Source: an uncultured Candidatus Binatia bacterium
Lineage (GTDB): Bacteria > Desulfobacterota > Binatia > UBA9968 > JAJDTQ01
Reading direction: 5' to 3'
Assembly (NCBI GenBank): GCA_964291295.2
Contig: OZ219754.1
Coordinates: forward strand, 1,472,001-1,536,000
DNA length: 64,000 bases
Shown: piece after piece, positions 59,051 through 64,000 of the stretch
Numbering within the stretch: the first letter of the stretch is position 1
Layout of the letters: each line of letters starts with the position of its first letter
Translations under genes and position numbers: made by a program
The notes under the pieces: model-generated
What the model was told of the DNA's origin: nothing
What the model saw: only the letters and a program-made list of their open reading frames with translations
Database searches by the model: none

Positions 59051-59755
59051 TCACTCCCCGAACGTTCTCCGGTAGTCCTCCGACGCCTGCGGGCCGGCAC
59101 GGTCGAAGACCTTCTCGCGCAAGCCGCCGGCATACTGTGCGGGAATGAAGTGGACTTTCTCGGTGAGGGACGGCTTCAGGCGCACGCCCCGGGCACGCAG
59201 CCCGTCGGCCGCGACGAGGTTGTCGAGGACAGTGCGGATCTCGTCATGGTGCGTCCACATGGCCTTGTAGACGATCCGGCCCTCCTTGCTCACGATGTGG
59301 ACCATGTTGGGCAGCGCGCCGTACAGCCGATGCACGGTGCCCGCCAGGTCGTCCACCAGCACGGGGTTCTCGATGCCGTCTTCCTCCCTGCACTTGCGCG
59401 CGTATGCCAGCTTCTGTTCGAAGTCCCGGTGCGGGCCGTAGTTCTCTCCGGGATGGGGCTCGCGCACGTAGACGGTGAAAAATTCGAAGCCCTGGTCCCG
59501 GTAGTGCCGGTACATGGCGTTGAGGGGCGAGACCTCGCCCACGAAGGGCGGTCAGGTAATGCTGCCGAATTCCAGCAGCACGTGCCTGCGGTCCCTGAAG
59601 GCGGACAGCCGGACCGTTTCGCCGTCAAGGGTCGGAAGGCTGAAATCGGGCGCCTCCTCGCCGGCGCGCAGGCGCGCGGCAAAGTCGCCGGCCTTGGCCG
59701 AACTCTCCGAGCGGTTGAACGTTTCGTAGTTGTAGACGCTGATCGACGGGTCCAT
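59051..59755 (-). CDS. Iodothyronine deiodinase-like thioredoxin-fold selenoprotein (Sec at TGA 59552-59554)
   Basis: Track ORFs 59552-59755 and 59051-59542 are one frame joined by TGA: APDF...FGSIT-U-PPF...YVREPHP...VLVDD...YGALPN. Confidence 0.9.
59525..59540 (-). promoter_or_regulatory. Bacterial SECIS element
   Basis: GGGCGA-GGTC-TCGCCC hairpin beginning 11 nt after the UGA; same spacing and AGGUCU apex as the E. coli fdhF SECIS. Confidence 0.85.
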
Positions 59756-61085: not shown

Positions 61086-62480
61086 ATGGACCTGAGAAGC
61101 TACGTCGAGTCCGTCAGGCGGCTTGCCCCCGAGCGTCTGCTGGAGGTCACGGACAAGCATGATATCAACCTGGAAGTGTGCGCCCTGATTGCCGACCTGG
61201 AGAAGCGCAAGCAGGAGCCGCTGGTGCTGTTCTCCAACATCGACAACCTGAGCGGCGAGCCTTCCGAGTTTCCTCTGCTCATGAACGTGTTCGCGTCCCG
61301 CGCAGCCTGCGCGGTGGCCTTGGGCCTGCCGCCCGAAAAGGCCGGCCGGGAGTTGATGATCGAGTTCCAGGCCCGTGAAGCGCGCCGGGAGAAGCCCGTC
61401 GTCGTGGACGCCGCCGGCGCGCCGGTGAAGCAGGTCCGGCTCGATCCCAACCTCCACTTCCTGCCGGTGCCGACCCATCACGTCGCCGACCTCGGCCCCT
61501 ATCTCACCACGACCTGGTGCGCCCGGGACCCGGACACCGGGGTCTACAACTCGTCGTTCCACCGCTGTTACGTGCGCGACCCGAAGCATCTGGTGATGTT
61601 CTTCGAGCGCCGGCATCTGTGGGACTACTTCGTCCGGGCGGAGGAGCGCGGCGAGGCGTTGCCGGTGGCCTGTGTCGTCGGCCACCATCCCGCCTACTAT
61701 CTCGGCAACTGCATCCTCAACGGCATCGCCGAGGACGAATACGAGAGCATCGGCGGGCTCATGGGCGAGCCCCTGCGGCTGGTGCCGTCCGAGACCTTCG
61801 GTGACGGACTGCTGGTGCCCGCAGACGCCGAGATGGTGATCGAGGGCCGGGTGCTGCCGCACCAGCGGGAGATGGAAGGACCCTTCGGGGACTTCACGGG
61901 CCTGTACGGCGCCGCCGGAGAGTCGCCGGTGGTGGAGGTGACCGCCATCACGCACCGTCGGGGCGCCTGGTGCATGGACATCCTTGCGGGGCACCGGGAC
62001 CATCGCCTCCTGGGCGCTGTGCCCAAGGAAGGCAGTATCTACCGCAAGGTGCAGGCGGTGGTGCCCACGGTGCGGTCGGTCTGCCTGCCGTTGAGCGGCA
62101 CCGGCCGGTTCCATTGCTACATCAGCATCGACAAGCGCTGCGAGGGCGAGGCCAAACTGGCGGCCATGGCGGCATTCACCGGGTCGGAACTGTTGAAGCA
62201 TGTCATCGTCGTCGACGCCGACATCGACGTGTACGACGAGGAGGAGGTGCTGTGGGCCGTCGCCACCCGGGTGGACGCCGCCACCGACATCGCCGTCATC
62301 GACCGGGTCAAGGGGAGCCGGCTGGATCCGGTGCATCCGGGCAAGGACTGGGGCTCGAAGCTGATCATCGACGCCTGCCGCAACCGGGATATCGACTTTC
62401 CGGAGCGCATCGCGGCCGCGGCGTACCGGCCAGGCAAAGGCGCGGGGAGCGGCGGGCGCCGGCAGGCGGATGATGCGTGA
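61086..62480 (+). CDS. UbiD-family prFMN-dependent (de)carboxylase
   Basis: YNSSFHR, AEMVIEG, EGPFGDFTG, VVDADIDV, WAVATR, LDP, KLIIDA. Confidence 0.92.
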   Translation: MDLRSYVESVRRLAPERLLEVTDKHDINLEVCALIADLEKRKQEPLVLFSNIDNLSGEPSEFPLLMNVFASRAACAVALGLPPEKAGRELMIEFQAREARREKPVVVDAAGAPVKQVRLDPNLHFLPVPTHHVADLGPYLTTTWCARDPDTGVYNSSFHRCYVRDPKHLVMFFERRHLWDYFVRAEERGEALPVACVVGHHPAYYLGNCILNGIAEDEYESIGGLMGEPLRLVPSETFGDGLLVPADAEMVIEGRVLPHQREMEGPFGDFTGLYGAAGESPVVEVTAITHRRGAWCMDILAGHRDHRLLGAVPKEGSIYRKVQAVVPTVRSVCLPLSGTGRFHCYISIDKRCEGEAKLAAMAAFTGSELLKHVIVVDADIDVYDEEEVLWAVATRVDAATDIAVIDRVKGSRLDPVHPGKDWGSKLIIDACRNRDIDFPERIAAAAYRPGKGAGSGGRRQADDA

Positions 62481-62904
62481 GGCGGACGAACCGCGGATCG
62501 AGGTGGTACAGGTCTCCTGTACCAGGGGCGAAGGCGATTGGCGCATGGTCTGGCGCGTCGCCAACTGGACCGGCTCCGAGATGCGTCTGCGGGACGCGAG
62601 GTTCCCCCACGGGCGGTTCCGCAGCCGCCTGATGGAGTTGACGGACGTTCGCATCGCGCCGGGCGGGGCCGCGGAGCTGGAAGCGCGGGTGGTCTGCAAT
62701 GGCGGGGGCGGCGATGTGGAGAACGCCTTCCTGATCACCACGGTCGAATGGCGGAACGTCCGTTGGCGGCTCCTGGCGCGCATGACCGTGCGCTTCGCGG
62801 CCGACGGGTCACCCGCCGCGGCGACCGAACGGGTGACGGTTCAGCGGGTGGGGTTTGCCGGCCCCGGGTATCGAGAGAATGCGGCAAGTGTCCAGCGGGC
62901 ATGA
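62470..62904 (+). CDS. Hypothetical beta-rich protein
   Basis: Overlaps UbiD stop; typical codon bias. Confidence 0.6.
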   Translation: MMREADEPRIEVVQVSCTRGEGDWRMVWRVANWTGSEMRLRDARFPHGRFRSRLMELTDVRIAPGGAAELEARVVCNGGGGDVENAFLITTVEWRNVRWRLLARMTVRFAADGSPAAATERVTVQRVGFAGPGYRENAASVQRA

Positions 62905-63003
62905 CCCTCGGGCGGGCGCAAACCGAGGTACCAACACCGAGGCACAAACCGGATGCGGCTCGGGACCGCGTCGTGACGGCGTCGTGAATGTTGCGAGGAA
63001 AGC

Positions 63004-63219
63004 ATGACCGAACGGGAAAAGTATATCTGGAAGCGCATGGGCGGCTGATACGAGAATTGAGGCCTCGGCTTCGAAGAGACCGCGGGTATGGTCTCCAACA
63101 CTCTCGACATGGAACTCGACGACCTCGTCGCGACGTTGAAATGCGTGCGCGAAACCTGCGGCGAGGATCCCGAGTACCTGAAGCTGCGCGCACGGCTGCC
63201 GGACGACTGGCCGATCTAG
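63004..63219 (+). CDS. Putative 71-aa selenoprotein with two in-frame UGA (UxxxU)
   Basis: GAGG RBS plus ATG; MTEREKYIWKRMGG-U-YEN-U-GLGFEETAGMVSNTLDMELDDLVATLKCVRETCGEDPEYLKLRARLPDDWPI; hairpin GAGACC-N8-GGTCTC at 63076-63095. Confidence 0.6.
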
Positions 63220-63374
63220 TGGTGTGTCTCATGAATGGCCTTGCAGTCTGCGATCTTGCGCAGGATGGAGTGGACGGATGTGTTCCAGGCGAAAGGTTGG
63301 GAATTGGCATTGTGGCAAGCCAGGGAGTGCTTGATGGCGGCAATCCGTTCCGGGACGCTGCGAAGGACGCCGGG
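63216..63374 (-). mobile_element. IS630-family transposase 3' remnant ending at a CTAG site
   Basis: Minus strand reads GVLRSVPERIAAIKHSLACHNANSQPFAWNTSVHSILRKIADCKAIHETHH*, resembling IS630 C-termini; ends in TAG. Confidence 0.7.
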
Positions 63375-63385
63375 GAACCTGCCCG

Positions 63386-64000
63386 GTGAGCCTTCCGACT
63401 ACGCCCCACGATGCGCTGTTCCGGGTACTGGTCTCCGAGCCGGCCCGCGCCGCCGCGCTGCTGGCGCAATACCTGCCGCAAGAAGTCGCCGTTCTCCTCG
63501 ACCCCGAGGCCCCGCCCGAGGCGGTGGAGGGCCACTTCGTGGACGAGGACGCCGCGCGGACCCAATGCGATGCGCTGTTCCGGGTGAGACTGAGGAGCGG
63601 CCACGATGCGCGGCTCTATGTACTGCTCGAACACAAGAGCCGCGTCGACGCGGACACGCCGCTCCAACTCCTGAAATACATGGTCAACATCTGGCGCCGC
63701 GAGGTCGAGAATGGCGCTGGCGGGGACCGGCTGCCGGCGATCATTCCGCTGGTTTTCTACCACGGTCGGGGCCGCTGGACTGCGGCGCCCTCGGTGCCGG
63801 GGATGATCGACGCGCCCGGGGAGTTGGAGCCTTTCGTCAGGGAGTTCGCCTATGTGCTGCATGACCTTGGCGAGATTGCGCCAGGGCGGTTGTCGGTCTC
63901 GCCCGAAGTGCGGGCCGGGCTTCTGGCACTCAAGGTGGTATATGCCGAGGACATACCGACGGATCTTCTGGACCAGATGACGGGCGGGCCGGTTGCAGGG
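63386..64000 (+). CDS. Rpn/YhgA-like recombination-promoting nuclease (3' truncated by window edge)
   Basis: PHDALF, FVD, DALFRV, YVLLEHKS, QLLKYM, IIPLVFYHG. Confidence 0.88.
   Translation, partial: MSLPTTPHDALFRVLVSEPARAAALLAQYLPQEVAVLLDPEAPPEAVEGHFVDEDAARTQCDALFRVRLRSGHDARLYVLLEHKSRVDADTPLQLLKYMVNIWRREVENGAGGDRLPAIIPLVFYHGRGRWTAAPSVPGMIDAPGELEPFVREFAYVLHDLGEIAPGRLSVSPEVRAGLLALKVVYAEDIPTDLLDQMTGGPVAG

Follow-up and report, generated by a model that had tools for sequence, protein, structure and literature searches.

A small gene at positions 63004-63219 (plus strand; TAG stop, 63217-63219, included) of a 64,000-nucleotide stretch of contig OZ219754.1, which belongs to the assembly GCA_964291295.2 of an uncultured Candidatus Binatia bacterium and is called the window here, very probably is translated into a selenoprotein in which both in-frame UGA codons are read as selenocysteine (Sec), to judge from the comparative sequence evidence. 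The first UGA is codon 15 (Sec15, 63046-63048, plus strand) and the second is codon 19 (Sec19, 63058-63060, plus strand), and the predicted product of 71 amino acids begins MTEREKYIWKRMGG-U-YEN-U-GLGFEETAGMVSN. A double-Sec protein had been proposed earlier from the letters of the window and a list of its open reading frames (ORFs), hereafter the sequence-only reading. This proposal is supported, and none of the three outcomes that it had named as speaking against it occurred: homologues carry TGA (79 genomes) or Cys (20 of 22 distant proteins) at the two positions and never Trp, amino acids are conserved from the N-terminus and not only from Met 63088, and selA, selB, selD and tRNA-Sec are all present in the genome.

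Re-reading of the sequence placed every element of the gene where it had been described, namely the Shine-Dalgarno-like sequence, the ATG at 63004, the TGA codons 15 and 19 and the TAG that ends a frame of 71 amino acids. The Shine-Dalgarno-like GAGGA (62995-62999, plus strand) lies 5 nt before the ATG, and GGAGG, GAGGA or AGGGA is found at the equivalent place in relatives of the genus. The host-like codon bias was also confirmed, the G+C content at third codon positions (GC3) being 0.80 in the frame of the small gene (0.79 upstream of the first UGA, 0.85 downstream of the second) and 0.81-0.89 in the neighbouring genes, with 0.59 and 0.41 in the other two frames. Because the genome has 66% G+C, the long ORFs that overlap the small gene in the remaining frames or on the opposite strand are the usual shadows.

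Conservation of the two UGA codons and of the protein

A six-frame search with the read-through protein over 61 related genomes returned a full-length match (residues 1-71 or nearly) in 49 of them, each with exactly two TGA codons inside, at identities from 90% down to 41% across three families. A profile built from 48 of these matches (A1) found the gene in 79 of 401 genomes sampled from the class, three of them unpublished (G344, G354 and G393), and all 79 full-length matches contain two TGA codons. The matches were distributed over the families f1 (22/26 genomes), f3 (49/64), f2 (3/4), f9 (3/55) and f20 (1/1), with none in the 15 other families of this sample, and among 401 genomes sampled across the whole phylum the genome of the window was the sole match.

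Fifty-seven loci (49 distinct sequences) were read codon by codon. All of them keep both TGA codons, a recurrence well beyond what chance would produce, are free of frameshifts and of any other stop, have a frame open for exactly 71-73 codons, and finish with the C-terminal motif L-P-x-(D/E/N)-W-P-x directly before the stop. Since many of these genes themselves terminate in TGA (e.g. L036-L039), TGA is not reassigned genome-wide. Fourteen columns of A1 are invariant, including G14, U15, N18, U19, E24, E25, T26, G28, M29, S31, N32, R62, P66 and W69, and a core motif G-U-x-x-N-U-G is followed by the near-invariant G-F-E-E-T-(T/A)-G-M-V-S-N. Upstream of the first UGA, codons 3-14 evolve like the C-terminal part, with ratios of nonsynonymous to synonymous differences (pN/pS) of 0.49 and 0.52, respectively, and a pS of about 0.6 in both. 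The sequence-only reading had also pointed to a second pair, C-x4-C (CVRETC). This is present as C47 and C52, but it is not conserved and is no part of the family signature: in the loci read and in the 48-sequence alignment no other genome has C47 and only some members of the genus have C52, and the pair was rejected as a family feature because it is lineage-specific. In one locus (L035, G025:C3) the ATG and the Shine-Dalgarno sequence are replaced by unrelated A+T-richer sequence (…AGTATATAAGT CCC ACT GAA…), and the start of this small gene may be lost or may lie elsewhere.

Public protein sets hold the bacterial gene in pieces. A word-indexed search of 5.8 billion proteins found only pieces of 43 amino acids (from Met29) and of 51 amino acids, which are gene-caller truncations of Sec genes, as had been anticipated for standard gene callers. 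When 1.84 billion representatives were searched exhaustively with a profile, 125 matches at E <= 0.001 were obtained, mostly 43-residue stumps, and 22 of the longer ones were read individually. Twenty of these are proteins of 60-133 amino acids with C-x3-C exactly at both U positions, and the other two are an unrelated repeat protein and a wrongly called frame that is joined to the C-terminus of a Sec form. The homologue comparison of the tBLASTn type that had been suggested as a check thus yielded TGA or Cys at both positions, with both flanks conserved.

Alignment A3 (23 rows) combines 6 Sec forms with 17 Cys forms; in it, positions C/U15, C/U19, F23, T26, M29, L45, R62, P66 and P70 are invariant, and both UGA positions are Cys in 17/17 Cys forms. 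These homologues are mostly archaeal, from metagenome-assembled genomes labelled Thermoplasmata, Heimdall-/Hodarchaeales, Marsarchaeota, Sulfolobaceae and Chloroflexota. Those of 71-73 amino acids (e.g. P0066 and P0028) have their length and the invariant positions of A3 in common with the Sec form, and differ from it by Cys at both positions and by F for W in the C-terminal motif. All Cys forms read are called 'hypothetical protein' by their depositors, and none has a name or a described function among the database records looked up. The full protein (with C for U) matched 0 Pfam and NCBIfam families at E <= 1, and 11 Cys-form homologues gave nothing above cut-off in the same collections.

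The genome of the window possesses a selA-selB-selD cluster (G000:C1:687502-691807), with profile scores of 567 bits for selA, 364.9 for selB and 373.8 for selD, besides a tRNA-Sec (75.2 bits), and its selD has an in-frame TGA of its own (KAAG-U-AAKLG). selA was also found in 5/5 other carriers tested, including the four outlying genomes of families f9 and f20, and we infer that selenium is inserted at both positions of the small protein. The clear Sec gene 3.3 kb away to which the sequence-only reading had appealed is a deiodinase-like/AhpC-TSA thioredoxin-fold gene (59051-59755, minus strand; PF00837, 53.2 bits) with an in-frame TGA at 59552-59554 (GSIT-U-PPF), which ORF lists break into pieces of 67 and 163 amino acids. 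None of the nine formate-dehydrogenase-like matches of the genome has a stop codon, and therefore FdhA is no selenoprotein here.

A weak hint of expression, for the gene of a relative only, comes from two RNA-library contigs of 199 and 215 nt that align to 63016-63212 and 62995-63157 with 16 and 13 differences (about 92% identity), neither TGA being changed. These small-share contigs derive from two metatranscriptome runs, both from a single study and labelled sponge metagenome, in which DNA carry-over is possible, and a search for RNA runs of the organism of the window found none.

Hairpins and the reading of the UGA codons

Two hairpins inside the coding sequence were predicted by RNAalifold. 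Hairpin 1 (63058-63073, plus strand), UGAGGC-CUCG-GCUUCG, has a 6-bp stem whose 5' strand starts with the second UGA, and a variable tetraloop. Hairpin 2 (63076-63095, plus strand), GAGACCG-CGGGUA-UGGUCUC, which we take as the candidate Sec insertion sequence (SECIS), has a 7-bp stem in which GAGACC (63076-63081) pairs with GGTCTC (63090-63095), extended by G63082-U63089, and a loop CGGGUA (63083-63088) that holds GGU; its start 15 nt after the second UGA had been noted correctly. The family consensus is UGAGGC-NNNN-GCUUCG for hairpin 1 and GAGACCR-CGGGYA-UGGUCUC for hairpin 2.

The hairpins coincide with a marked synonymous constraint, pS being 0.19 in codons 20-31, whereas the three remaining parts of the gene have 0.59-0.62. 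The third positions of GAG25 and ACC26 are invariant in 56/56 in-register sequences and that of GTC30 in 55/56, and at the third base of Ser31, the first position beyond the stem, all four letters occur. Hairpin 1 keeps a fixed stem under a tetraloop that varies (CUCG, GCCG, GUCG, GCAA, GGAA, GGCA and others), and over three families there is almost no variation from the second UGA through to GGUCUC. Over the 57 sequences 99.5% of cells are paired in the two hairpins (99.3% in hairpin 1), and one-sided changes preserve the pairs (G-U to A-U or G-C; A-U to G-U). The predicted structure therefore rests on invariance rather than on covariation.

The loop of hairpin 2 holds GGU and is separated from the second UGA by 22 nt and from the first by 34 nt, which is within, or one nucleotide beyond, the range in the selD and deiodinase-like genes, whose loops are of the GGUC type. 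Hairpin 2 is therefore most likely the SelB-binding element, possibly serving both UGA codons, and hairpin 1 would then be an auxiliary element; alternatively, each hairpin might serve the UGA that precedes it. The corresponding distances in the two other Sec genes of the genome span 17-33 nt: the hairpin of the deiodinase-like gene (GGGCGA-GGUC-UCGCCC) is canonical, beginning 11 nt after the UGA with its loop at 17 nt, and that of selD (GGUGCAGG-UCC-CUGCACC) is fdhF-like, beginning 25 nt after the UGA with its loop at 33 nt. The SECIS of E. coli has a strict spacing requirement. Hairpin 2 resembles the fdhF-type SECIS, of which these two genes are the local examples, in being a G+C-rich hairpin inside the coding sequence shortly after UGA with GGU in the apical loop, but here two UGA codons 12 nt apart precede one hairpin, the loop is CGGGYA and not GGUC, and a second conserved hairpin, which contains the second UGA, stands before the SECIS candidate.

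Several observations speak against this interpretation of the hairpins. Double-sided (compensatory) changes occur in 0/13 pairs of the two hairpins and shuffles equal the observed value, although this covariation test is uninformative given how little the stems vary. The region folds with an unexceptional energy (z -1.30; 16/200 shuffles fold as well), the loop of hairpin 2 begins with C and not with G, CUCG, the commonest loop of hairpin 1, has no G in its first two places, and Rfam gave no match at E <= 10 for 62900-63300. Moreover, the nucleotide invariance partly overlaps the most conserved amino acids (FEETTGMVS), and for this reason constraint on protein and on RNA is not fully separable. 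A divergent metatranscriptome homologue (contigs X1 and X2; at window 63068) reads …GGT TGA CAC CGT CGT TGA GGC GGG…, in which Arg replaces the Asn that otherwise always precedes the second UGA and the 5' strand of hairpin 1 differs, and variants of this kind could supply the missing covariation.

The lack of covariation in the hairpins and the loop of hairpin 2 that does not start with G would also suit a rival reading in which the UGA codons are read through or bypassed without Sec, either by near-cognate insertion of Cys, Trp or Arg or by division of the frame into a 14-codon leader and a 43-residue protein starting at Met 63088, with hairpins that regulate or stall translation. Gene callers do report the 43-residue ORF, from the ATG inside hairpin 2, in very many genomes. 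However, residues 1-28 show conservation at the protein level and can be aligned over their full length with the Cys forms, both C/U positions included, the Sec machinery is present in all carriers tested, no Shine-Dalgarno-like sequence precedes Met29, whose ATG is base-paired in hairpin 2, and AlphaFold2 models the whole chain as one compact domain with a predicted local distance difference test (pLDDT) of 93.7. We therefore regard decoding without Sec as improbable.

It is even less probable that the conserved stretch is mainly an RNA element (cis-regulatory or a small RNA) with an incidental open frame. The near-invariance from the second UGA to GGUCUC across three families and the low pS there are compatible with such an element, but outside codons 20-31 pS is about 0.6 while the amino acids are kept, the frame of 71-73 codons and the C-terminal motif are found in 57/57 loci, the archaeal Cys forms share the protein, and Rfam recognises nothing in the region. 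Finally, a decaying pseudogene with two nonsense mutations, which the sequence-only reading had already judged less likely than recoding, can be dismissed as having a negligible chance, given that, in spite of the mobile-element cluster beside the gene and the insertion that its 3' end abuts, 79 genomes from five or more families have TGA at precisely these two codons, no frameshift or other stop interrupts any of the 57 loci, and the insertion leaves the last codon and the stop intact.

Companion genes and possible function

Directly downstream of the small gene, in 54 of the 57 bacterial loci, there is a convergent gene for a heme-oxygenase-fold (HDO-like) protein of 266-270 amino acids (67-86% identity); the three loci in which it is not adjacent are L041, L072 and that of the window. 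The bacterial protein matches Haem_oxygenas_2 (PF14518) with 53-64 bits, besides TENA_THI-4, and its nearest solved relatives are the CT610/CADD 4-aminobenzoate synthases (PDB 1rcw/8va9, E 1.9e-12). With the CADD family model TIGR04305 the bacterial protein scores 49.7 bits and the archaeal one 30.1, the cut-off of 200 not being reached, and hence the linked enzyme is only a distant relative of the self-sacrificing 4-aminobenzoate synthase CADD (CT610), a relationship of superfamily membership only. CADD-type enzymes are Mn/Fe or Fe/Fe oxygenases of the HDO superfamily, according to the accessible portions of PMC9522330, PMC11965152 and PMC13108848, in which no small thiol (Cys/Sec) partner of CADD is mentioned.

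The archaeal Cys forms show a comparable arrangement. Fifty-six archaeal loci, fetched with the pattern MGNC[FY][AE]AC (from alignment A5) and hence representing one archaeal subgroup only, were inspected, and 41 of them have, at -4 to +25 nt after the Cys-form gene, a same-strand gene for a protein of 294-307 amino acids, the remaining 15 having ambiguous ORF calls or contig ends. The neighbour in L094 matches zf-C2H2_9 (51.1 bits), TENA_THI-4 (106.4 bits) and Haem_oxygenas_2 (49.7 bits) and is closely related to PDB 4lqx (E 1.5e-118). Cys-form loci thus resemble Sec loci in adjoining a heme-oxygenase-fold TENA/CADD-like gene, but their enzyme is co-directional and carries an N-terminal zf-C2H2_9, whereas the bacterial one is convergent. 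A tblastn search with the archaeal HDO protein gave nothing at E <= 1e-5 in the bacterial loci. Because adjacency holds in 54/57 bacterial and 41/56 archaeal loci, the small C/U-x3-C/U protein and a heme-oxygenase-fold dimetal enzyme are linked in both domains. A complex prediction for the archaeal Cys form (A6) with the zf-TENA/HDO protein (A7) gave a score of 0.00 and a mark of 0.32, with no controls, and counts neither way.

On the other side of the small gene and on the same strand lies the gene of an all-beta partner of 144 amino acids (62470-62904), which is directly upstream in other loci too, where it encodes 135-155 amino acids and ends about 20-120 nt before the small gene. Its alignment (A8, 35 sequences) has W24, N32, P46, H47, F50, C76, E84, N85, F87, W99, R104 and other positions invariant, and its AlphaFold2 model is a nine-stranded beta sandwich (pLDDT 89.8). 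The partner has no match in Pfam and NCBIfam, and Foldseek retrieved no significant relative, the best hits (E 1.5e-3; template-modelling (TM) score about 0.35) being generic Ig-like sandwiches (ASF1, ApaG, TRAP). Five related genomes without the small gene, 97-99% complete, have selA (5/5), lack the partner (0/5) and contain HDO paralogues that are only 26-31% identical. Given that genomes without the small gene are also without the partner and without a close HDO gene, the trio comes and goes as a unit, that is, as an accessory module. Directly upstream of the partner, with an 11-nt overlap, there is a UbiD-family decarboxylase gene (TIGR00148, 294.9 bits; 61086-62480, plus strand), which is syntenic within the genus and not in other families.

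The AlphaFold2 model of the small protein, obtained with the 48-sequence alignment (predicted TM score 0.79), is a confident bundle of four helices, at residues 3-19, 23-33, 38-52 and 56-63, and places Sec15 and Sec19 one helical turn apart (i, i+4), on one face and towards the end of helix 1. These proteins are mildly acidic, with a median isoelectric point of 5.15 and a net charge of -3. It is reasonable to suppose that the Sec pair would form a diselenol/diselenide redox centre or a metal-binding site, and that the small protein would act as a reductant or a metal-delivery factor for the neighbouring oxygen-activating dimetal enzyme, the beta-sandwich protein perhaps being a third component in bacteria. 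We put forward this role, as a redox or metal-delivery partner of the HDO-like enzyme, tentatively and at somewhat less than even chance.

Some of the data do not favour such a partnership. The bacterial HDO gene is convergent and not co-transcribed with the small gene, and a hidden Markov model of the bacterial partner found nothing at E <= 1 among the six-frame ORFs of the 56 archaeal loci. In the genome of the window the HDO gene is intact and stands 8.4 kb away (C1:1543408-1544208, minus strand), the pair being split by insertions, namely an Rpn/YhgA element of 1.73 kb, a Tn5-like transposase whose N-terminus is DruA-like, another DDE transposase, a helix-turn-helix (HTH) protein and an ORF without assignment. 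The model of the small protein, moreover, finds only HTH-type DNA-binding domains as structural matches, all weak, in Foldseek (best E 0.34, TM score 0.54-0.59) and in VIA (Z 5-6.3; best 6.3, with a root-mean-square deviation of 4.3 over 62 residues).

The best of these structural matches are tetra-helical HTH domains (LuxR/NarL/GerE, sigma-70 region 4 and the DtxR/MntR N-terminal domain), but scores of this size (E >= 0.34; Z < 8) can arise from chance arrangements of helices, and no Pfam HTH family matches. As such scores are typical of common helical arrangements, filing the protein among HTH proteins was not adopted, and the HTH-like matches are uninformative on redox function. A profile search of the PDB with A1 gave nothing below E 0.03, and the ESM Atlas queried with P0066 returned unnamed clusters with a best score of 0.76, which is a lead only.

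A more specific scheme combines these elements: an obligately di-Sec bacterial family whose helix-borne U-x3-U diselenol would serve a CADD-like dimetal oxygenase as its dedicated reductant or metal-delivery factor, an old partnership that would exist in archaea as an operon with Cys, and decoding of both UGA codons by a single SECIS together with a hairpin that sequesters the second UGA. That all of this applies together seems to us doubtful rather than likely.

Related selenoprotein families and the mobile element at the 3' end

The spacing of the two Sec residues had been described as unlike any recognised family, and this was upheld by a May 2026 review (PMC13188914), whose Table 1 gives the motif and the number of Sec residues for 119 prokaryotic selenoprotein families, none of them with U-x3-U. 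Proteins with two Sec are rare and form a small subset of the 119 families, the nearest being those with UxxU (NF041115, TIGR02605 and Prx-like), with UxxxxU (TsoB, NF045694) and the CU-type double selenoproteins (PMC13188914). The known close double-Sec families (the metal-binding UxxU family NF041115, the FmdB-family TIGR02605, Prx-like UxxU, TsoB NF045694 and MbdU NF045648) likewise have two UGA codons a few codons apart, and in them the pair presumably is a diselenol for redox or metal binding, as proposed here. The present family differs from them by its U-x3-U spacing and by its predicted all-helical bundle, and none of their NCBIfam models matches it (E <= 1).

No description of the family was found in the accessible parts of PMC12013277, PMC1976440, PMC1794560 and the Haft and Gwadz preprint, the survey supplements being outside this scope. 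A full-text literature search for 'UxxxU' returned no biological paper, and no description was found in the literature on two-Sec selenoproteins (including those of Desulfovibrio), on tandem UGA codons, or on HDO enzymes with a small protein or CXXXC. The small protein thus represents a so far undescribed selenoprotein family with an unusual two-UGA arrangement and an unexplored partnership. Current annotation misses this family entirely, with only the 43- and 51-residue stumps in public protein sets and no profile library that recognises it. It is a small, naturally occurring system in which to study the decoding of two UGA codons 12 nt apart by a bacterial ribosome, and it provides a first lead to the function of the CADD-like dimetal oxygenase and of the unnamed small archaeal C-x3-C family.

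The element that abuts the 3' end of the small gene is an inserted 1.73-kb Rpn/YhgA (Transposase_31, PF04754) element on the plus strand, which extends from 63216 to the end of the window at 64000 and on to the window-equivalent position 64943 (C1:1535216-1536943); PF04754 scores 144.5 bits for 63386-64000, with a cut-off of 21. Its ends are inverted, about 150-200 nt long, and start CTAG(T/C)GGTGTGTCTCATGAATGGCC. About 19 related ends, corresponding to about ten copies, exist in the genome; most start with CTAG or CTGG, and they are paired in opposite orientation 1.4-1.7 kb apart. Both the TAG stop of the small gene and the third base of its Ile71 codon come from the terminal CTAG of the element. 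Beyond the window, a 778-residue ORF (L150:1005-4365; C1:1537005-1540365) combines a DruA-like N-terminal region (Druantia, 77.2 bits) with Tn5-type transposase domains and is followed by a DDE_Tnp_1 transposase, both being inserted between the small gene and its usual neighbour.

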